From the NCBI GenBank assembly GCA_038889235.1, contig JAWAHN010000003.1:113703-145702 (forward strand): a stretch of 32,000 nt of DNA, given 5' to 3'. The stretch comes from Candidatus Jordarchaeales archaeon. Its GTDB lineage: Archaea; Asgardarchaeota; Jordiarchaeia; Jordiarchaeales; Freyrarchaeaceae. A program made the position numbers and the translations under genes. Below the pieces are notes generated by a model, which made no database searches, was not told the DNA's origin, and saw nothing but the letters and a program-made list of their open reading frames with translations. This document shows positions 6,463 through 30,652 of this stretch, one piece after another; position 1 is the first letter of the stretch; every line of letters starts with the position of its first letter.

Positions 6463-7374
6463 CTAAAGGATTTTGTATAGCGGGGTTTCCTTGTTTTCCA
6501 ACTCGTAGCCTTCCACTACGAGGCTGTATGTTAGAACAGCGTCGACTGTTGCGCATGCTGGGAAGACCACCTCAGCTAGGCTCACAGGCCCGTACAGTAT
6601 GAAGTCTGCTCCAAAGCACCGGGCGAAAACGCACAGGGACACTAGAAGTGTCCTCTTGGCATGAGGGGCTATGTTATCTATTTTTCTTGATCCGCCCAGC
6701 GCGTTTGCAGGTGAGCAGCCGCTCGGGAGACCCGTCGACTCCTTAACCGCCGTTATCGACTCGGCCGCGTACGCCATGCTCACCACGTCTAGGAGCGATA
6801 CGTCCACGAGCACGTTTTTAACGCCTGCTTTCTCCGCTTTCGAAAGAAGTGAGTCGCCGTCGCGGAGCAGCTTCAGCTTTTCTTCGGGTGAAAACTCTGA
6901 CTCGCTGAACGTTAGGAGGACGGCGTTCTCAACTCCCAGTTCTCTTAAGGCCTCAATTTCCTTTGGGCTAGAATCTGGAGTTATCGAGTTATACACGACG
7001 CGCTCCTTTAGACCTACCTCGACAGCGTGACTGCACGCTTCGAGCCGGGCCTCAGTTGAAGGGGAGTCGACGAGTATTGGGGCATCAATCACAGTTGACA
7101 CGAAGTCTATGTAGTTGATGAGGGCGTTGCCGGTTCGCCCCACAACGTCAACCATGCACGGGTTACCCGTGGCGTCGGAGAGCTCCTCCTGTTTTAACAG
7201 GAGTGACTCAGCTCTTCCTCGGTCGAAGGCTCCCTTAACTGGGTCTACCACAAGCTTGTCCCCTTCGTAGAATATAGTACCAACAAGCACTGTAGGGTTC
7301 TCTCCAAGCTGTCCTCCGACGCGGACGCCAGCTATCCTGAAAACCTTTTGTTTTGACTTGAAGCGGAGAAGCAT
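6463..7374 (-). CDS. mtrH: MtrH/MtgA-like methylcorrinoid:tetrahydropterin methyltransferase (paralogue 1)
   Basis: F-x-x-x-QKVF-x-IAG-x-x-VGGQ-x-GENPTVL-x-GTIFY, YNSI and GADFILYGP motifs. No other mtr subunits are adjacent. Confidence 0.85.
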   Translation of the reverse strand: MLLRFKSKQKVFRIAGVRVGGQLGENPTVLVGTIFYEGDKLVVDPVKGAFDRGRAESLLLKQEELSDATGNPCMVDVVGRTGNALINYIDFVSTVIDAPILVDSPSTEARLEACSHAVEVGLKERVVYNSITPDSSPKEIEALRELGVENAVLLTFSESEFSPEEKLKLLRDGDSLLSKAEKAGVKNVLVDVSLLDVVSMAYAAESITAVKESTGLPSGCSPANALGGSRKIDNIAPHAKRTLLVSLCVFARCFGADFILYGPVSLAEVVFPACATVDAVLTYSLVVEGYELENKETPLYKIL

Positions 7375-7385
7375 TATCTTGTCTC

Positions 7386-8018
7386 CTAGCTTACTCCCAG
7401 GAGCTTTTTGGCGAGCTCGACTGCGCCCTCCGCGTCGGGCGCCCAGCCGTCTGCCCCAACACTTTCAGCCCATTCCTTCGAGGTCACGGCCCCGCCGACG
7501 ATCACCTTGTACTTGTCTCTAACACCCATCTCCTTAAGTATCCTGATTAGTTCCTCGAACTTGGCTAGGGCCGGGGTGAACACTATTGATACAGCTATTA
7601 GGTCAGCTCCGACCTCTTCAGCCTTCTCGTAGAATGTCCATGGTTCAAGGTTTTCACCCAGATCGTAGACTTCGAAGCCGTTTATCGTTAGAAACATGCT
7701 CACAAGGGTCTTCCCGATGTTGTGCTTGCTGAGGAGTGTTCCTATGACGACTTTTTTCTTAGCTCCAGCCTTCTCCTTCGGCAACACTTTTTCAACGAGG
7801 TCTATGCACTTCTTAGCGATCTTGCTTCCCTTAATTAGGTCAGGGATGAAAGCCTGCCTCTTCTCAAACTTGGCGCCTAAGTCGTAGAGCCCCTTGACAA
7901 CCCCCTCCTCGATTATCTTCACGGGGTTAACCCCCTCCTCCAAAAGCTTCCTCGTTAACTCCTCCGCCTCCTCTCTAATCTCAGCTATCGCCCTTCTAAG
8001 ATCTGAGACTTCAACCAA
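7386..8018 (-). CDS. Methyltransferase cognate corrinoid protein (MtmC/MtbC-like) with variant cobalamin-binding motif
   Basis: Four-helix cap domain (GVNPVKIIEEG...FIPDL) followed by a B12 Rossmann domain (HNIGK, NGFEVYDLG, KVIVGGA, GADGWAPDA). TTG at 8018 is preferred (GGGGTGG SD); the ORF track extends to 8090, overlapping the upstream gene. Confidence 0.88.
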   Translation of the reverse strand: MVEVSDLRRAIAEIREEAEELTRKLLEEGVNPVKIIEEGVVKGLYDLGAKFEKRQAFIPDLIKGSKIAKKCIDLVEKVLPKEKAGAKKKVVIGTLLSKHNIGKTLVSMFLTINGFEVYDLGENLEPWTFYEKAEEVGADLIAVSIVFTPALAKFEELIRILKEMGVRDKYKVIVGGAVTSKEWAESVGADGWAPDAEGAVELAKKLLGVS

Positions 8019-8058
8019 GCAACCACCCCATAATGAAAAGTTTGGGCCACGCTTTTTT

Positions 8059-9744
8059 TCATTTTTTCGCGAGGTCTCTTGTGAGCTCACTCGCCGCTAT
8101 GTAGCCGAAGCATATCCCTGCGCCTATAGTTATGCCGCTGCTCGGGTATCCTCCGCCCGAAACAGCAGCTGTGACGTTGCCAGCCGCGTAGAGCCCTGGT
8201 ATAGGCTTGTCGTTGTAGTCGAGAACTTGCGCCTTCTCGTTTATCTTCAAGCCGCCACACGTGCCAAGGCACCCGGGGTACACTTCAATGGCGTAGAATG
8301 GTGGCTTCTCTAGTGGTCCGAGAGTCGGGTTAGGCTTCCAGTTGGGGTCACCGTAGAACCTGTCGAAGTGGCTCTCCCCGCGGTGGAATTCCGGGTCGAC
8401 GCCCTCCTTGGCGTACTTGTTGAACCTTTCAACGGTCTCTTCAAGCCCGTCGGGGTCTATTCCCGCTTTCTTCGCGAGGTCTCTGATCGTGTCAGCCCAC
8501 TTGAAGGGTGGATCAGTCGGCTTAGCCCCTGGGTAGAGGGTGAATACGGTGTAGCTTTGGTGGACGCGCTCGTCGAAAATCATCCACGCTGGAATGTTTG
8601 TGTACTCGTGCTTATTCGGATCCCAGGTGTGCATAGCCCTTGTGAAGTCAAAGTAGTTTGCGGCCTCGTTAGCGAAGCGCTTGCCGTACTTGTTGACTAT
8701 TATCACTCCGGGCAAAGCCTTCTCGAAGAACACTCCCCTGTAGTAGGGTTTCCCGTCGTAAGTGTCGCCCGTGTAGACCGTCGGGAACCACCACGCCTCA
8801 CTCATAAGGTCAACTTGCGCTCCTACCTCCATCGCCATGCGGTGTCCGTCCCCGGTGTTGTGGGGCGGAGACATGGGCCCCCTCATAGGCCCCCTTAGGA
8901 AGGCTGAGGGCATTTTTTCATGCCACTCGAAGCCACCCGTCGCTAGGACCACTCCTTTCCTAGCACGGATCCTGAGCTCTTTTCCCTCGTGCTCCGCTAT
9001 CACGCCGACAACTCTTCCGTTCTCGACGACAAGCTTCTTGGCTGGAGTTTTGTACTTGATCTCTATACCTCTCTCGTAGCAGGAGTACAGCAGGCGGGCT
9101 ATGAGCGCCGTCCCCCACCCGTAGACCCTTTCTTTAAGTCTCTCGTTTATTAGGTTGAAATCCCACTTGCCGCTCATCATCGTTGCTAGCCCGCCCCACT
9201 CAACGAGCTCTTCGAGCAGTATCGGTAGACTGACGGGGGAAAGCCTTACCCGCTCGGCAACCTCTTTCGGTAGAGAGTTGAAGCTTATAAGTTGTGCCTC
9301 CATCACCCTTCCACCCTTCACTCCTCCCTCCCACTCGGGGAAGTAGTCTGGCATCAGTTTGACATGTGACCACTTGACGTGCGTGTTCTTCTCCAGGTAG
9401 TCGCAAGCCTCGTTTACCGTCCTAAGGTACGTTCTTATCAGCTCGTCGCTCGATCTTCCAGCAGCTATCGCCTTCATGTATTTGAAGGCCTTTTCTTCGG
9501 AGTCGGGAGCCTTAACCCACTCCTTTTTAACGGGATCCCAGAACTCCGGCTGGAACCCCTCCCTGATGAACCTGTTATTCGGCACCCAGACGGCTCCCCC
9601 GGAGACAGCGCTTGCTCCACCAGCCTTATCCGTTTTCTCGAGAACGACGACCTTGGCGCCCCTATCGTGGGCGACTATGGCTGCAGTCAGGGCGCCCGCG
9701 CCGCTGCCGACTACCACAACATCTACTTCAAGATCCCACGGCAA
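8059..9744 (-). CDS. FAD-dependent oxidoreductase, 3-ketosteroid delta-1-dehydrogenase (KstD)-like / FAD_binding_2 family
   Basis: DVVVVGSGAGA, GGASAVSGGAVWVPNN, PDYFPE, VVLATGGFE, NTGDG, G-x-IIVN-x-x-G-x-RFANE, LGTCGGL and IPGLYAAGN..YPSSGITIG motifs. TTG at 9744 is preferred (GGGAGGGG SD); the ORF track extends to 9852, into the promoter region. Confidence 0.8.
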   Translation of the reverse strand: MPWDLEVDVVVVGSGAGALTAAIVAHDRGAKVVVLEKTDKAGGASAVSGGAVWVPNNRFIREGFQPEFWDPVKKEWVKAPDSEEKAFKYMKAIAAGRSSDELIRTYLRTVNEACDYLEKNTHVKWSHVKLMPDYFPEWEGGVKGGRVMEAQLISFNSLPKEVAERVRLSPVSLPILLEELVEWGGLATMMSGKWDFNLINERLKERVYGWGTALIARLLYSCYERGIEIKYKTPAKKLVVENGRVVGVIAEHEGKELRIRARKGVVLATGGFEWHEKMPSAFLRGPMRGPMSPPHNTGDGHRMAMEVGAQVDLMSEAWWFPTVYTGDTYDGKPYYRGVFFEKALPGVIIVNKYGKRFANEAANYFDFTRAMHTWDPNKHEYTNIPAWMIFDERVHQSYTVFTLYPGAKPTDPPFKWADTIRDLAKKAGIDPDGLEETVERFNKYAKEGVDPEFHRGESHFDRFYGDPNWKPNPTLGPLEKPPFYAIEVYPGCLGTCGGLKINEKAQVLDYNDKPIPGLYAAGNVTAAVSGGGYPSSGITIGAGICFGYIAASELTRDLAKK

Positions 9745-9789
9745 CAAACAACCCCTCCCATCCAACTGTAGAAACTGAAAGTTTCTCTC

Positions 9790-9843
9790 TAAAAAAAGTT
9801 TTCCGAGAAAGGATTTTTCAAAAAATGGGAAACGCATATATGC
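9790..9843. promoter_or_regulatory. Divergent promoter region of the KstD-like operon and mtmB-like gene, with palindromes
   Basis: AT-rich gap containing ATTTTT-CA-AAAAAT (9813-9826) and the perfect palindrome GCATATATGC (9834-9843, TATA-like). Confidence 0.45.
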
Positions 9844-9881
9844 TTGGAGCACCTCATTAGAGAGATTCCGGGGGGTTTAGT

Positions 9882-11237
9882 GTGTCTTTGTTATGGGAAG
9901 TTTTGGAGAGGTCTCAAACTGGTCCTCTCATGAAGGAGGAAGAGTTTGAAACTGAGTTTTTCCCGTCAAAGATAAGGGAGATTGTGAAGGAGCACGGGAT
10001 TAAGTATGACCCGGAAGAAGTCGTTATGACTGATGCGAACATGGCTGACGAGATCTTCGAGGCGGGACTTGAGCTACTACTGGAGGTTGGACTATACAAC
10101 AAGGACACGAAGAGGATAGTGAAGTTCACGGAGGAGGAGATCAAGGAGGTTCTCGCTACGAGGAAGAGGGAGCTCGTTCTCGGGGAGGGGAGAGACCAAA
10201 TAGTCCTGAGGCCTAGGAAGCCGGAGGACAGGGAGCCTCCTAAGACTTTCCTGCCCGCCGGCATACTGACCAGTAACATCGAGCTGTACAAGGCCTATGT
10301 GCTCTCAGCGGCAAAGGAGCCTGTTGCAGATGGACTCATAGCCCTCCCCCTCCAGGGGATAGGTGAACTGAAACCTGTGAGCGGGACTCCCAGCGAAACC
10401 CTCCTCGGACTGACTGAAGGCTTCATCCTCAGAGAAGCAGCTGTGCGCGTAGGTAGGCCTGGAATGTTCCTAGGGATCCCCATGAGCGTGTCGAGCGCAA
10501 AGGCTGTGATGGGCTCTTTCCACCCTGCAGGTTACACGAGGTACAACTGTATGTGCCCGGTTCACATAATACAAGACATGAGGATTGACTATGACAGGCT
10601 TAACTTGGCTTTTTTCGCCCAGCAGAACGGGATAAACCCGTGGATCAGCAGCTGCCCCACGATGTACGCCTATATAGGTGGACCGGAAGAGGCGGCGGTT
10701 GAAGGGATAGCTCACGTCCTCGGAATGATGGCCTATTCCGGTGGCTCCTTTGCTCAAGCCATGAGCGCGACTATTCAGGGGAGGTACGAGGGGAGAGATG
10801 TTTTCTGGGCTAACTCGGCTCAAGCACTCGCCGCTGAGAGGAACATTAGGGTTCCATGGATAAGTTTCGGCGGTGGTGTTACGGGGCAGCAGGCGACCGA
10901 AGTGTCCTTCTATTCAATCGCCGCCACAGTTATAACGAACACTATTTCAGGCATGGAGGGGATGTGGCTTACGGGGGGTGTGCCGGGGATTGAGGGAAGG
11001 TGGGGTGGAGAAGTGGCGAGGGCTGCGGCTGGCATAAAAGTAAGTGACGGAGTAGAGATAGTGAAAGAGCTGCTTAAGAGGTACGAGGACAAGGCGAAAG
11101 TCGGGTTGCCGAGCGAGACGCTAATACTAGAAAAGTACGACATGAAAACTCTTACACCGAAGAAGGAGTACGTCGAACTCTACTCGAGGATGAAGAAGGA
11201 ATTACAGGACATGGGCCTAGAGTATGAAGCGTGGTGA
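9882..11237 (+). CDS. mtmB: MtmB-family (monomethylamine methyltransferase-like) corrinoid methyltransferase, pyrrolysine-free
   Basis: N-terminal R-x-x-TGP, GIKYDPE, D-x-x-AD-x-IF-x-AG-x-ELL, RIVKFTEEEI, VLGEGRD, GRPGM and YIGGPE match MtmB. The ORF is uninterrupted (451 aa), and Gly (GGG, 10473-10475) sits at the Pyl-equivalent position. Confidence 0.85.
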   Translation: MSLLWEVLERSQTGPLMKEEEFETEFFPSKIREIVKEHGIKYDPEEVVMTDANMADEIFEAGLELLLEVGLYNKDTKRIVKFTEEEIKEVLATRKRELVLGEGRDQIVLRPRKPEDREPPKTFLPAGILTSNIELYKAYVLSAAKEPVADGLIALPLQGIGELKPVSGTPSETLLGLTEGFILREAAVRVGRPGMFLGIPMSVSSAKAVMGSFHPAGYTRYNCMCPVHIIQDMRIDYDRLNLAFFAQQNGINPWISSCPTMYAYIGGPEEAAVEGIAHVLGMMAYSGGSFAQAMSATIQGRYEGRDVFWANSAQALAAERNIRVPWISFGGGVTGQQATEVSFYSIAATVITNTISGMEGMWLTGGVPGIEGRWGGEVARAAAGIKVSDGVEIVKELLKRYEDKAKVGLPSETLILEKYDMKTLTPKKEYVELYSRMKKELQDMGLEYEAW

Positions 11238-11287: not shown

Positions 11288-12328
11288 TTAGAGTATTCTG
11301 CGAAGCTCGCGTCTAACGAATGCCTCCCTCTTTTCGTCGTCTAATTTGTTCGTTAATTGTGAAAGACTCTTTACGAGGAGTGTTATGCCATCCACATCGT
11401 CCACGTACCTTTCCAGGGGGTTGTCTTCATGCTCTAGGGCGCGCGCAGCAGCCGTGCCTGTCTCTACGGCGAACCTAATGCCCTCCCCAGAAAACGGGTT
11501 GCAGAAGCCCCCCGCGTCGCCTACGAGGAGCACGTTCCCCTGCCCGTGTAAGACCGTCCCCTGCGGTATAAACCAGTGCTCCCTCCTCAACAATCTACGC
11601 AGCTTAAACCCTAGTCCCTCTAAAACCTCTTTGACCTTCCCGATGCTGGATTTAGCTTCTCTAAGCGTCGACGCCCCAGACCCCACTATGAAAAAGTCTC
11701 CTTTAGGTATCAGGTAACCGTAAAGGGGGGTAATGTTTCTCCCCAGGAGGAGCATGTAGAAGCACTCTTCGAGCTCACCGTCACCCTTCCAGTGCTCTTG
11801 GACAACGGATGCTGTTTTGAAATGAGCCCCGGGGAACAAGGTCCGCCTAGCCTTCGAAAAAACCCCGTCCGCCCCAACCAGGAATCTCGCCTCAATTCTT
11901 TCCACCCGCCCCCCAAGTTTAACCGCGACAGTCACTTCGCCCCCGTGCTGCTTAATGTCCACGAGGCGGGCGCCGTAGAGCAGCTCGACCCCCCTACTCT
12001 CTGCCTCTCTCCTAAGCCATTTGTCGAACGCGTGTCTTTCAATGTTCACAAGCCTGTAACTTTTCACGCGCCCCCTGTAGCCGCTCGGGGAAACATAGAA
12101 TAAGCCTAGCTTGCCGGGCGTGCTTAGAACGCTCTTAGGCAGACTTAGGCCTAGTTCGTGTGCGAGGACGTCTACGCACACCTCGGTTAGCACTCCCCCG
12201 CACGGCTTACACGCCTGAACACTGCCTTTCTCCACTAGCAGGGTGTTGTAGCCTTCCTCAGCCGACTTTATTGCTGCACTCGCCCCCGCTGGGCCAGCTC
12301 CGGCTACTATTAAGTCGTATTTTTTCAA
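11288..12328 (-). CDS. Geranylgeranyl reductase-like NAD(P)/FAD oxidoreductase (LipT-like by context)
   Basis: YDLIVAGAGPAG, KPCGG, R-x-x-FD-x-WL, VGADG and LLVGDAGG..PFSGEGI motifs. TTG start overlaps the ligase stop (TTGA). Last gene of the lipoate assembly operon. Confidence 0.8.
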   Translation of the reverse strand: MKKYDLIVAGAGPAGASAAIKSAEEGYNTLLVEKGSVQACKPCGGVLTEVCVDVLAHELGLSLPKSVLSTPGKLGLFYVSPSGYRGRVKSYRLVNIERHAFDKWLRREAESRGVELLYGARLVDIKQHGGEVTVAVKLGGRVERIEARFLVGADGVFSKARRTLFPGAHFKTASVVQEHWKGDGELEECFYMLLLGRNITPLYGYLIPKGDFFIVGSGASTLREAKSSIGKVKEVLEGLGFKLRRLLRREHWFIPQGTVLHGQGNVLLVGDAGGFCNPFSGEGIRFAVETGTAAARALEHEDNPLERYVDDVDGITLLVKSLSQLTNKLDDEKREAFVRRELRRIL

Positions 12329-13911
12329 CGCTGCTTCTCTCCCTTAAACTTGCAAATACTGCCTATTATCTTGGACAGCGTGTCCAGCTTGAGCCTGGTT
12401 TGAGCCTCAAAGTTCCCCTTGTATGCTTCCTCGCTTTTCCCCAGCTCGTAGCAGGTTTTGTCGTCTATCGTGATTATGAGTCCTGGAACGCCCACTGCTT
12501 CCAGCTCGTCCCTATGTTTCTGGTAGAACGCCTCACAGCAGCACCCTACGAAGCCCCTCGCCCCCTTCTTCTTCATGAAATTAAGGACTTCCATGAGGTG
12601 CTCGAAGTTCTGTATGGTGATCGGGGTTAGCCCGGCTTCCTCAGCCATTCTGTAGGCTTCTCCAACGCTGCAGACGCCGCACTTCTCGCATCCCTCAACT
12701 CTCCTGTAACTGCACTCCACGTGTTTTGCGCAGTAGGGGAGTAGCAGGTAGTCGCATTCTCCTAGTGGCATCATCCAGGCTTTACTTGTTACGGGGAGCA
12801 CGTAGTTTAACTCGTCCCCTCTCAACCCATACTTCTCGTAGTGCAACTTCCCGGCGGCCTCAATTATTAGGTCGGCGACGTCGTCTGGGGAAATGCCGGG
12901 AATACACTCACCCCTCAACTTGAAGAACTCTTTAACCCTTCTGCGTATCTCCTCCTCATCGCATGGTGAAAACTTCAGGGCTGCTTCGAGGTCATATACC
13001 ACTCTGGGTGGGAAGGCGAAGAAGTCTCCTGTTATAAGTACGTGTTTTATGAGGTTTGCCTCTCTATCGACTGTCAGCGCCACTCTTATCAGCCCACCAG
13101 GCTTCTTCGCTATGGAGTAGAGGACCGCCGGTTCATCGGACGACCTCCTGTCCAGGAATACCCAGTCATCGGACTGGAAGTACGGCAGCCTCTCACGTAG
13201 CATTTTCTCCTCCTCTTCGAGGAGGCCTGACTCCTCGAGCTCCACTCCCATCGCTTCCTCGAAGCCGCTTATCAAGCACTCTTTGATCTCCTCGTAGGAT
13301 GGCTTATAGCCGAGCTCCCACGACAAGCAGGTGACCCTCTCCCTCACCGACTGTATCTCCTTGTCCTTAAGCTTGACGACAGGTATTCTTAACGCTTTGA
13401 TCATCGTTTCAACGTCGAAGTCGACGAGCAACGTCCCCTGGAACAGTATCGCCCCACCCCTCTCCGTTCCTCCTGTCCCCGAGATCTTCCTGCCCTCAAC
13501 CTCTATGTCGTTCTTCGGGCGGAATGAGGCCCTAACCCCTAGCTTCTCCAGAGCCTTAATGGCGCCGGCGCACATTATTCTGAAAAGGGACTCGATGCTT
13601 CCATATGGCGGGATATCACTCTTCGAAGCAATTACTTCCCAGCCGACGGACTCCTCGTCGAAGTATATCGCGCCGCCACCAGTGATCCTCCTGTTCACAT
13701 GTATTCCTTTCTCCTTAACGTAGTCCATCCTCACCTCCTGCGTGACATCCTGGTGGTAGCCTACAAGTACGGCTGGGGGCTTGAACCTCAAGAGGCGGAA
13801 GGTGTTCGGGCTAACACCCCTCGCCTTACACTCAAGTAGGACGTCGTCAAGCGCCATGTTCTCCGCGGCTGTTCTGAGCCCGGTATCCAGGAGACGCCAG
13901 ACAGCCCTCAA
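12325..13911 (-). CDS. Lipoate-protein ligase (LplA/LipM catalytic + C-terminal domain) fused to a Cys-rich DUF116-like domain
   Basis: WRLLDTG, NMALD, RRITGGGAIYFD, NDIEVEGRKISGTG, FQGTLL, K-x-PGGLI and ITGDFF motifs, then C-terminal LPYC, C-x-x-C-x-x-C, GCCCE and TCY. TTG at 13911 overlaps the upstream stop (TTGA); the ORF track extends to 13941. Confidence 0.88.
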   Translation of the reverse strand: MRAVWRLLDTGLRTAAENMALDDVLLECKARGVSPNTFRLLRFKPPAVLVGYHQDVTQEVRMDYVKEKGIHVNRRITGGGAIYFDEESVGWEVIASKSDIPPYGSIESLFRIMCAGAIKALEKLGVRASFRPKNDIEVEGRKISGTGGTERGGAILFQGTLLVDFDVETMIKALRIPVVKLKDKEIQSVRERVTCLSWELGYKPSYEEIKECLISGFEEAMGVELEESGLLEEEEKMLRERLPYFQSDDWVFLDRRSSDEPAVLYSIAKKPGGLIRVALTVDREANLIKHVLITGDFFAFPPRVVYDLEAALKFSPCDEEEIRRRVKEFFKLRGECIPGISPDDVADLIIEAAGKLHYEKYGLRGDELNYVLPVTSKAWMMPLGECDYLLLPYCAKHVECSYRRVEGCEKCGVCSVGEAYRMAEEAGLTPITIQNFEHLMEVLNFMKKKGARGFVGCCCEAFYQKHRDELEAVGVPGLIITIDDKTCYELGKSEEAYKGNFEAQTRLKLDTLSKIIGSICKFKGEKQR

Positions 13912-14918
13912 TTTTTCACTCTCCAAGCGAGTGAGCAACATTCATCGTGAAACACAACCGACAAACCCCTCTTGACCGACAAGCGGTAGGCTGCCTCCGA
14001 CGGGTAGGCTATCCCGTTTACCCCGGCTTTCACTCCTAGCACGTCTAAGGCCCCCCCATACCTCCCCCTAGGCCTAGCACATCCTAGGAGCAGCGGGGTT
14101 TTAGGCTTCGCCATCCTAGCGGCGACGACAACCCTCAACACGTCTCTTAAGGGGGGCGGTGGCGTCTTTTCCATCGGAGTGGCCTCGAGGGGCATCAATA
14201 CGACTATGACGAGCGACGCTATCTTTCTCTCGCAGACGGCTTTCAGCGCTTCTCTCTCCCCCCTCAGCCTGCCCCCCTGTAGTCCGACCACCACGTGGGG
14301 AGCTAGCGGGACGCCGTGTTGCTCCAGTAGTTCAAGCGAGTGAACGTAGTCCTCCACGCTCCGGTTCAAATGGAGCACCCCCCTTATGGTTTCATTTGAG
14401 CCGACGACGTCTATCATGGCGCAGTCCACGCCTGCTGAGGCGAGCCCTTCAGCGGTCTCCTCGTCGACCAGTCCCGTGTGAACGACGACGCTCAACCCCA
14501 ACTCCTCCTTGATTCTCCTCATCACTTTGAAAAAGGGTTTCAGTGGAACACTGCCGTCGGCAAGACTTCCACCGCTGACGAGGATACCCGTCCCTCCCTC
14601 CTCCCTCACTTTCAGGGCGACCTCGTAAAGCTTCTCCGGGCTCCCCGCCGGCAACATCCTCCTCAGTAGTCTGCCCCTGCAGTGGTCACAGTTCAGCTGG
14701 CACACCTTTCCCGTCACGGATACAGCGGGGAAGCGGTATGGGTTCATCGCCCTATAGAAACTCGCCTCGAAGTGGACCATTCCCGGGAAGTAGAAGTGGA
14801 TGACGTCTGGGAAGTTTTCAGACCTAACCTTGTAGGCTGACCTCAGTAGGTGCGTCAGCTCTTCGGGGCTGCACTCGAAAGGTCGGTCGACGGCCTGGCT
14901 GCAACGCGGGCTACTCAT
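13908..14918 (-). CDS. lipS1: Radical SAM protein, LipS1-type archaeal lipoyl synthase component
   Basis: CQLNCDHC radical SAM motif plus GCAR and C-terminal CC motifs, which I recall as LipS1 signatures. Clustered with lipoate ligase and a second radical SAM gene. The LipS1/LipS2 labelling relies on recalled motifs. Confidence 0.75.
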   Translation of the reverse strand: MSSPRCSQAVDRPFECSPEELTHLLRSAYKVRSENFPDVIHFYFPGMVHFEASFYRAMNPYRFPAVSVTGKVCQLNCDHCRGRLLRRMLPAGSPEKLYEVALKVREEGGTGILVSGGSLADGSVPLKPFFKVMRRIKEELGLSVVVHTGLVDEETAEGLASAGVDCAMIDVVGSNETIRGVLHLNRSVEDYVHSLELLEQHGVPLAPHVVVGLQGGRLRGEREALKAVCERKIASLVIVVLMPLEATPMEKTPPPPLRDVLRVVVAARMAKPKTPLLLGCARPRGRYGGALDVLGVKAGVNGIAYPSEAAYRLSVKRGLSVVFHDECCSLAWRVKN

Positions 14919-29506: not shown

Positions 29507-29731
29507 AAGAAGAGGCGCACGTCCTTCCCAAGGTTGACACGTTGCCTTTAAGTGCACGCTTTTCTTATGCAGGTGGAACCCATTACGAGGCTGTGCATTC
29601 TAGTTTTGTCAACGCACTACTTTTCCTTTGATCCCAAAATTTATTTGATTCCCCCTCCCTTCCTTGAGGAAGGGCGGTAACAAAATTGGATTTGCAGGGC
29701 TTAGGGAAAAGGGGAGGTGAGGTGGGCTTTT

Positions 29732-30652
29732 ATGTTTAGGTTTACAGCCGAGCAAAAAACGTTCAACATAGCGGGAGTTAAGGTCGGCGGCCAGCCGGGA
29801 CAGGTCCCCACTGTTATGATAGGCACTATTTTCTATCACGGAGACAAGCTTGTTGTAGACGAGCGGGAGGGTGTCTTTAACAGATCGGCTGCCGAGGAAG
29901 TGCTGAGAAAGGAGGAGGAGATTTCCCTCAGGACTGGGAACCCACGCATAGTCGACGTCTGTGCCTCTCATCCTCAAGCGTTCGAGAAGTTCATCGACTT
30001 CGTGGCTGACGTTGTGGAAGGACCTTTCTGCATCGATGGCACCACGGCTGACGTTAGGATAGCGGGAGCGAGGTATGTTATGGAGGTTGGCTTGTCGAAC
30101 CGTGTCATATACAACTCCATAAGCCCAGACGTGAAGGATGCTGAGCTTCAAGCAATCAAGGACGCTGGAATTAAGTCCGCGGTGCTGCTGCTCCTCAACG
30201 TTAGAAATCCGCTTATCAGTGGAAAATTCGAGGTAATCGATGAACTATTGCGAAAGGCTTCGACCGCAGGCGTGGAAAACGTCCTCATAGATACTGCTAC
30301 CATAGACATATTAGACCCCGGCCCCGTATCTAAAGCGATTTACTTGGTGAAAGAGAGGTATGGCTACCCGGCAGGTTGCGGCGCGCACAACGCCATCGAC
30401 ATATGGCGTAAGCGCACGAAGCTGAGCCCAGGCGTAAAGTTCTCAGGGACCATTCTGGCAAACGTCCTACCCGTGGTCATGGGGGCAGACTTCCTCCTCT
30501 ATGGACCCATAGAAAACGCGGCAAAAATATACCCTCCAGTGGCGCTTGCAAATGCGTACGCGGCGTACACTTTGTGGCAGGAGTACGGTGTAAAGCCCCC
30601 GGCGGGGAACCACCCGTTTTACAACCTTAGCAAAATAGCTGCCATAGAGTAG
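29732..30652 (+). CDS. mtrH: MtrH/MtgA-like methylcorrinoid:tetrahydropterin methyltransferase (paralogue 2)
   Basis: MFRFTAEQKTFNIAGVKVGGQPG-x-x-PTVMIGTIFYHG, IYNSI, YGYPAGCGAHNA and MGADFLLYGPIENA motifs. ATG at 29732 with GGAGGTGA SD; the track gives 29717. Confidence 0.88.
   Translation: MFRFTAEQKTFNIAGVKVGGQPGQVPTVMIGTIFYHGDKLVVDEREGVFNRSAAEEVLRKEEEISLRTGNPRIVDVCASHPQAFEKFIDFVADVVEGPFCIDGTTADVRIAGARYVMEVGLSNRVIYNSISPDVKDAELQAIKDAGIKSAVLLLLNVRNPLISGKFEVIDELLRKASTAGVENVLIDTATIDILDPGPVSKAIYLVKERYGYPAGCGAHNAIDIWRKRTKLSPGVKFSGTILANVLPVVMGADFLLYGPIENAAKIYPPVALANAYAAYTLWQEYGVKPPAGNHPFYNLSKIAAIE

Follow-up and report, generated by a model that had tools for sequence, protein, structure and literature searches.

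In Denitratisoma, estrogens are converted to 1-dehydro-androgens by methylation, for which a pyrrolysine-free MtmB-like subunit, EmtA, works with a corrinoid protein, EmtB (10.1101/714501; PMC7448270). In Phosphitispora sp. TUW77, a 3-oxosteroid 1-dehydrogenase makes a dienone, whose C-19 methyl is transferred by AbeA onto the corrinoid protein AbeB (PMC11912376); AbeC then hands the methyl to tetrahydrofolate (THF), and it is oxidised via the Wood-Ljungdahl pathway (Phosphitispora, PNAS 2025; PMC11912376). Another pyrrolysine-free MtmB homologue, MtqB of Methanococcoides methylutens (2026), demethylates tetramethylammonium and choline (PMC13044021). We describe here a four-gene unit from a Candidatus Jordarchaeales archaeon, found in a 32,000-nucleotide stretch of contig JAWAHN010000003.1 (hereafter the window, to whose first letter all plain positions refer). 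It encodes an MtmB-family first methyltransferase (MT1), a corrinoid protein, an MtrH-family second methyltransferase (MT2) and a KstD-family flavoprotein. The Jordarchaeia have been described as acetogens using methyl groups, their methyltransferases being read as a sign of methylamine use (PMC9723677).

Our preferred reading, which we hold tentatively and at somewhat less than an even chance, is that the unit carries out an Abe-like demethylating aromatisation of a hydrophobic, steroid-like cyclic dienone and passes the methyl to tetrahydromethanopterin (H4MPT). It would be a self-contained module through which a cyclic ketone of hydrophobic character and the C1 pool exchange a methyl group, similar to AbeABC with KstD but built from paralogous parts. 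An earlier note on this DNA had proposed such chemistry (a dienone made by KstD, a pyrrolysine-free MT1, an MT2 delivering to a pterin), and its description of EmtAB is correct (10.1101/714501). The chemistry has a bacterial precedent, shown for AbeABC (PMC11912376). That note called it a candidate new pathway; because the AbeABC/KstD route was published for bacteria in 2025, the kind of system is not new (PMC11912376). Its remark that no such system was described in archaea agrees with literature searches, which gave no paper extending the pathway to that domain. Taken as a whole, the proposal is partly supported: its plausible, precedented chemistry and its synteny stand, its newness of kind does not, and MT1 groups away from EmtA, which is part of what the note itself named as counting against the proposal.

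A conserved four-gene unit

The unit lies at 6463-11237, where the MtrH-family, corrinoid and KstD-family genes on the minus strand face the MtmB-family gene on the plus strand. Domain matches confirm the proposed arrangement of an MtmB-fold MT1 divergent from a KstD-like/corrinoid/mtrH operon, and also the flavoprotein as the first gene of that operon, with its PF00890 match and with AcmB and KstD1 as its closest structures. The parts are as follows:

6463 to 7374, minus strand: MT2, a predicted MtrH/MtgA-family methylcorrinoid:pterin methyltransferase of 303 amino acids (aa), last gene of the operon (PF02007, 9e-81; NF002142)
7386 to 8018, minus strand (open reading frame, ORF, to 8090): corrinoid protein of about 208 aa with B12-binding_2 and B12-binding domains and the loop S-K-H-N-I-G-K
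8059 to 9747, minus strand (ORF to 9852): KstD-subfamily flavin adenine dinucleotide (FAD) flavoprotein of about 562 aa from the TTG at 9747, first gene of the operon (PF00890, 2.9e-81)
9748 to 9881, unstranded: AT-rich divergent spacer, about 134 bp long, separating the flavoprotein operon from the MT1 gene, read from the sequence
9882 to 11237, plus strand: MT1, a pyrrolysine-free MtmB-fold methyltransferase of the "P0136-type" clade, 451 aa, with a GTG start at 9882 (PF05369, 4e-63)

For the flavoprotein, the TTG at 9747 is the probable start, since its N-terminus then aligns to Met1 of KstD1 and the 97%-identical protein P0302 has 563 aa; the corrinoid protein probably starts near 8009-8018, at LVEVSD. 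These refined starts give the AT-rich divergent spacer of about 134 bp and a tightly packed operon, in which 11 nt separate the corrinoid and MtrH-family genes. A/T-rich runs are found about 35-45 nt upstream of both starts and a G-rich stretch just before the GTG at 9882, and the interval 9748-9881 is a putative divergent promoter region. The G+C content of the cluster (0.53-0.54) is that of its flanks.

The same order and orientation is found in four other loci from Asgard metagenome-assembled genomes (MAGs), three of them Jordarchaeales and one labelled Freyarchaeota, and a rearranged module is present in Bathyarchaeota and in unassigned contigs. The arrangement is therefore not due to chance; indeed, the gene linkage is far beyond it, and the synteny of KstD-like, non-pyrrolysine mtmB, corrinoid and mtrH genes that the earlier note had proposed to look for is strong in related genomes. 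Within the order, no close MT1 orthologue lacks the divergently oriented flavoprotein gene beside it. Among 400 Asgard genomes, these close orthologues are confined to the genus of the window and one sister family; among about 400 Bathyarchaeia genomes, a single one carries the MT1 clade, with six paralogues of which three adjoin a KstD-like gene. The paralogues of the Bathyarchaeota MAG OY970340 are at loci L016, L029, L030, L033, L034 and L035; two of these, at L033 and L035, seem to carry frameshifts, which may stem from errors in long-read assembly.

The other two proteins have a similar history. MT2 is 52% identical to the MtrH of a related module (L061) versus 39-41% to three paralogues in its own genome, and for the corrinoid protein the values are 66% versus 34-36%. 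Both are thus closer to their counterparts in other modules than to paralogues at home, which argues that the module moves as a unit. By profile, MT2 belongs to the MtrH family (NF002142, 292.8 bits, above the cut-off of 287) and falls below the equivalog cut-offs for MtrH proper (236 versus 271 bits) and MtgA (268 versus 550), so that the profile does not fix its pterin specificity.

A dedicated flavoprotein subfamily and its methyltransferase partner

The closest solved relative of the flavoprotein is AcmB (7P18; 3e-108, 366 bits), and KstD1 (4C3X) matches at 1e-74 and 255 bits; a 598-aa FAD_binding_2 flavoprotein structure, 8AM8, scores 194 bits, below both steroid enzymes. The catalytic tetrad is intact, with Y170, Y400, Y569 and G573 (ORF numbering) corresponding to Tyr119, Tyr318, Tyr487 and Gly491 of KstD1, and it is kept in every subfamily sequence covering those positions (one sequence is gapped at two of them). 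The protein scores under the NCBIfam KstD equivalog cut-offs (NF009478, 478.6 versus 789 bits; NF005882, 442.8 versus 788) and reaches 457.6 bits against ChcC1 (NF053676), whose cut-off is 1000. In searches, nothing falls between a group at 52-61% identity and the generic KstD-family proteins, none of which exceeds 48%. The 13 cluster-linked flavoproteins form one clade (support 1.0), apart from the 110 next-closest KstD-family proteins, and this clade carries a private insertion of about 14-17 residues at ORF residues ~99-112. Ten of these 13 flavoprotein genes, spread over Jordarchaeales, Bathyarchaeota and unassigned contigs, have a window-clade MT1 gene as neighbour. The link between KstD-type enzyme and MT1 clade is real and strong, and the flavoproteins are a dedicated subfamily.

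MT1 is the product of the only MtmB-family gene of the genome, and no NCBIfam model matched it. The gene is free of in-frame TAG, and Gly198 aligns to Pyl202 of Methanosarcina MtmB1 (1L2Q); glycine stands at the pyrrolysine position in all 24 clade members aligned. Together with the PF05369 match (4e-63), this bears out its description as a pyrrolysine-free MtmB. The Pfam match, along with the published view of Jordarchaeia as methylated-amine users (PMC9723677), would suit classical monomethylamine use, which is how the literature reads the methyltransferases of this group. We find this very improbable given the missing pyrrolysine codon and the clade-wide glycine, a score of only 160 bits to MtmB1, the lack of any NCBIfam match, and the report that among Asgard archaea the pyrrolysine machinery is found only in Sifarchaeia (PMC9723677).

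In a tree of 167 sequences, MT1 falls in a fully supported (1.0) clade of 26 tips, the P0136-type clade. Its members come from Jordarchaeales, the Bathyarchaeota paralogues, two unassigned contigs, Dehalococcoidia, and a proteobacterial, Myxococcota and Binatia crown that includes P0136 of D. oestradiolicum; the sister lineage is L071/P0146. EmtA is placed in a separate clade of 8 tips (support 1.0), and the smallest branch to unite it with the window clade has 48 tips and a support of 0.85. Forty signature positions of the P0136-type clade were defined without the Jordarchaeales sequences, and the window MT1 bears 31 of these clade-specific residues; C223, R234 and Y262 stand where the rest of the superfamily has strongly conserved D, K and G. 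The window MT1 is 46% identical to P0136 versus 31-33% to the true EmtA (L076:6490-7845), and P0136 itself is 25% identical to EmtA. As gene callers split pyrrolysine-containing MtmB at the TAG, none was present among the full-length 50% representatives, and matched phmmer scores were used instead, with 1L2Q as the MtmB1 sequence: 206 bits for window MT1 and EmtA, 160 for window MT1 and MtmB1, 82 for EmtA and MtmB1, and 284-434 for EmtA within its own clade. By these comparisons MT1 is not an EmtA orthologue but a cousin from a separate clade, and the expected grouping with EmtA did not materialise. AbeA is about 40% identical to EmtA (PMC11912376) and therefore most likely belongs to the branch of EmtA and not to that of the window protein, a placement judged from the reported identity.

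In the sister family (L048, L049, L051, L055, L056) there is a second pyrrolysine-free MtmB paralogue, whose identity to the window MT1 is 37-39%. It directly follows a canonical D-x-H-D-I-G corrinoid protein and falls in the branch that also holds EmtA.

The corrinoid proteins set the two clades apart as well. In the window protein, the cobalt-ligand loop reads S-K-H-N-I-G-K; compared with the canonical D-x-H-x-x-G motif it has lost the Asp and is shorter by one residue. The pattern S-x-H-N-I-G-K is found in all 12 corrinoid partners of the MT1 clade examined, the window's included. The Asp is kept in the true EmtB (loop G-D-L-H-T-I-G-Y, 36% identical overall to the window protein), in the sister lineage, in outgroups and in three of the four other corrinoid proteins of the genome; a regular-expression search gave no match in the fourth (own_C1_168k). 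In both loop and identity, then, the window protein lacks EmtB-type character.

Denitratisoma and the two types of module

D. oestradiolicum has two MtmB-family genes. P0136 was considered as EmtA and rejected, because the other gene matches the published emtABCD neighbourhood: around L076:6490-7845 lie a luciferase-like oxidoreductase, a corrinoid protein, MT1 and then serine hydroxymethyltransferase and MetH, and the published gene numbers agree (EmtABCD, 1167-1170; RACE, 1164; PMC7448270). By gene order, P0136 (L038:8001-9377) is DENOEST_v1_1155. With estradiol versus acetate, DENOEST_v1_1155 is induced with a log2 of 23.2, 1153 with 18.4 and 1156 with 4.1. The P0136 module is located about 13 kb from emtABCD, and in a Binatia MAG (L077) a P0136-type module lies inside a full Emt-type island, adjacent to an EmtAB-type module; two unrelated bacteria thus keep both module types in one gene island. 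Published studies of estrogen methylation leave the P0136-type module undiscussed.

This induction also bears on the opposite direction. In an Emt-like reverse scheme, methyl-H4MPT would load the corrinoid protein via MtrH, MT1 would turn a phenolic ring into a dienone by C-methylation, and reduction of this dienone would fall to the KstD-subfamily enzyme, aided by old yellow enzyme (OYE) reductases where these occur, giving an anaerobic degradation route for phenolic or estrogen-like compounds. EmtAB runs that way, the bacterial orthologue is estradiol-induced and sits inside Emt islands, KstD-family enzymes are reversible in principle, and OYE-type enoate reductases accompany several archaeal-type modules. 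However, methyl transfer from methylcobalamin to a phenol is endergonic and is driven by S-adenosylmethionine (SAM) in Denitratisoma, where methyl-THF was no substitute for SAM in cell extracts (PMC7448270). No Emt-type SAM-regeneration island stands beside the archaeal module, and a methyl-harvesting role fits the view of Jordarchaeia as methyl-using acetogens (PMC9723677). We consider the reverse direction unlikely.

The modules fall into an archaeal type, with MT1 adjoining a KstD-like gene and usually a corrinoid protein and MtrH, and a bacterial type consisting of TetR, a thymidylate-synthase/PterinBD-DUF4346 protein, MT1 and a corrinoid protein, without clade-type KstD and as a rule without MtrH. 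Related loci often add stand-alone SCP2 genes (sterol-carrier fold), OYE-type enoate reductases, and electron-transfer flavoprotein (ETF) genes with Fe-S/CCG proteins. The PterinBD-DUF4346 protein, often with a thymidylate-synthase part, is encoded directly upstream of MT1, after the TetR gene, in nearly all bacterial modules, where it probably replaces the usual pterin-binding MT2. Examples, identified by domain content, are:

L038:6937-7866, PterinBD-DUF4346 protein
L077:7135-8502, PterinBD-DUF4346 protein
L078:8512-9918, PterinBD-DUF4346 protein
L007-L032, homologues

Possible function and its alternatives

In the reading that we prefer, the KstD-subfamily flavoprotein would turn a ring bearing a 3-oxo group into a cross-conjugated 1,4-dien-3-one by desaturation, and MT1 would shift the quaternary (angular) methyl to the Co(I) corrinoid protein, the ring becoming a phenol. 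The MtrH-family MT2 would then hand the methyl to H4MPT and so to the Wood-Ljungdahl pathway of the archaeon, and a RACo-type activator encoded elsewhere in the genome would keep the cobalt reduced. In this scheme we infer which class of substrate is used, that the chemistry is of the C-methyl kind (versus O- or N-methyl), which way the methyl travels and which pterin takes part.

The genome (2.14 Mb, 95% complete) holds one MtmB-family gene, one KstD-family gene, four MtrH paralogues and five corrinoid proteins. It also encodes Mch, CdhC and two RACo genes, representing the H4MPT pathway, CODH/ACS and corrinoid activation, so that methyl delivered to H4MPT has an onward route. The Abe-type parts list of MT1, corrinoid protein, MT2, KstD-type dehydrogenase, Wood-Ljungdahl pathway and corrinoid activator is thus complete in one genome. 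An apparent in-frame TAG in the second RACo gene was dismissed, as it is the stop codon that ends this gene, lying where the match runs out, and the ORF of 605 aa is intact. Beyond the parts list, the demethylating aromatisation draws support from the intact tetrad and the steroid-enzyme relatives of the flavoprotein, from its dedicated subfamily, from the SCP2, OYE and ETF neighbours in related loci, from the estradiol-induced orthologue and from the published precedent. MT1 shares a broad branch with EmtA (0.85) and scores higher with EmtA (206 bits) than with pyrrolysine-containing MtmB (160).

Several points weigh against it. The flavoprotein is far below the KstD equivalog cut-offs and scores about equally as a 4-oxocyclohexanecarboxylate dehydrogenase. 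MT1, at 31-33% identity to the true EmtA, belongs to a separate clade with a different corrinoid partner, it would by the placement of AbeA not be an AbeA orthologue either, and its function is a prediction. MtqB shows that a pyrrolysine-free MtmB homologue can be an N-demethylase. Most bacterial clade members, from marine and sediment lineages, are in the compact TetR/thymidylate-synthase-PterinBD-like/MT1/corrinoid protein unit without KstD, and the clade may therefore have had something other than a steroid as its ancestral substrate. In D. oestradiolicum, co-regulation with neighbouring B12 salvage genes could account for the induction, and for the estrogen degraders strain DHT3 and S. denitrificans no P0136 homologue is listed. 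In the window's own genome no SCP2, OYE or ETF genes are clustered with the module; its OYE homologues are only 32-36% identical and on other contigs. SCP2 genes 4-5 kb upstream of the window were rejected as part of the module, being placed among unrelated NrpR, amidase, enoyl-CoA hydratase and mannoside genes. Lastly, the names of the closest MAGs (LHC, JZ-1) suggest what we take to be hot springs, where an abundance of steroids is not obvious. Thermophilic Jordarchaeia are mentioned in the paper on this group (PMC9723677).

A second corrinoid system begins in the window at 29717-30652 (plus strand) and continues past its end into L075 (G000:C3:145000-152500), with a thermosome gene lying between its genes:

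29717 to 30652 of the window, plus strand: MtrH paralogue, 311 aa
L075:1830-3335, minus strand: pyrrolysine-free MttB-family MT1, 501 aa
L075:1144-1833, minus strand: canonical corrinoid protein
L075:3524-5458, plus strand: AcsV/RamA-type RACo activator, 644 aa

Such a separate pyrrolysine-free MttB system is of the kind used for quaternary amines. It bears on heteroatom demethylation, in which the MT1 of the four-gene unit would remove a methyl bound to O, N or S, for instance from a quaternary amine or from a methoxylated compound, aromatic or alicyclic. The KstD-subfamily and OYE enzymes, instead of making the methyl donor ready, would process the demethylated ring afterwards, for example by phenol or cyclohexenone reduction or by desaturation. 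The KstD-less bacterial units would suit this chemistry, and so would the flavoprotein, which matches 4-oxocyclohexanecarboxylate 2-dehydrogenase almost as well as KstD. MtrH-type MT2 enzymes serve methoxydotrophic archaea (MtoA). MtqB, for its part, shows that pyrrolysine-free MtmB homologues can be N-demethylases (PMC13044021). Yet no amine or betaine transporters and no amine-pathway genes were found beside any module examined, the genome already has its MttB-type system, the Denitratisoma orthologue is estradiol-induced, and the stand-alone SCP2 carriers of related loci point to a hydrophobic substrate. The O-demethylase MT1s known to us belong to a fold other than that of MtmB. On balance, a heteroatom substrate seems rather unlikely.

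If the demethylating aromatisation is correct, archaea, including Asgard (the closest known relatives of eukaryotes), would harvest methyls from steroid-like molecules without oxygen, and the bacterial "estrogenesis without oxygen" would be extended to a second domain and a paralogous enzyme lineage. The Jordarchaeia would then have to be re-read, as their single MtmB-family gene had been taken as evidence of methylamine use. A bolder version, possible but doubtful, is that Asgard and Bathyarchaeial archaea possess a second corrinoid-methyltransferase lineage, independent of EmtA/AbeA and paired with its own KstD subfamily, for anaerobic C-demethylating aromatisation of steroid- or terpenoid-like rings. 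It would constitute the first steroid-type ring transformation pathway in Archaea and would offer a biological origin for the steroids and terpenoids with an aromatic ring A that occur in anoxic sediments. Whatever the substrate, an MT1 clade that many marine and sediment bacteria possess, its Asp-less corrinoid partner and a dedicated KstD subfamily are now defined for bench work. The estradiol-induced genes DENOEST_v1_1153, 1155 and 1156, in a cultivable bacterium, offer an immediate experimental handle.

The rest of the window is of housekeeping nature, with TrpB2/TrpY, lipoate ligase, LipS1-type radical SAM, ilv/leu and thermosome genes. A geranylgeranyl-reductase-family flavoprotein gene (11288-12328, minus strand) is convergent to the MT1 gene; it was rejected as a member of the module, since its position is kept within the genus only and at 64-66% identity, far below the 81-94% of its neighbours. 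The lipoate-protein ligase (12325-13941, minus strand) is a 538-aa fusion with a C-terminal DUF116; after it come LipS1-type and other radical SAM genes.

Compared with MtqB, by description only, the module shares a pyrrolysine-free MtmB homologue with a cognate corrinoid protein; MtqB is an N-demethylase in a methanogen and sends its methyl to coenzyme M via MtbA. With AcmB and KstD (7P18, 4C3X), the flavoprotein has in common the FAD_binding_2 fold and all four catalytic residues, but it is at most ~45% identical, carries the subfamily-private insertion and is below the equivalog cut-offs. EmtABCD shares with the window the pyrrolysine-free MtmB-fold MT1 and cognate corrinoid protein, within the broad superfamily branch supported at 0.85. 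Unlike the window, it is driven by SAM in the methylating direction, includes EmtC and EmtD, has no MtrH, and keeps the canonical loop G-D-L-H-T-I-G in EmtB.

DENOEST_v1_1153/1155/1156 belong to the same orthologous clade as the window module, with 46% identity for MT1, 52-54% for the corrinoid protein, and the shared S-x-H-N-I-G loop. That module is estradiol-induced and TetR-regulated, has a thymidylate-synthase/PterinBD-DUF4346 protein (1153) where the window has MtrH, and, unlike the window, is without an adjacent clade-type KstD gene. AbeABC with the 3-oxosteroid 1-dehydrogenase of TUW77 matches the window in its parts and in the logic proposed for them, through the Wood-Ljungdahl pathway (PMC11912376). 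The Abe system is bacterial and THF-based. In the window the dehydrogenase sits within the operon. Judged via EmtA (AbeA ~40% identical, window MT1 31-33%), the window MT1 and AbeA would be at best paralogues.

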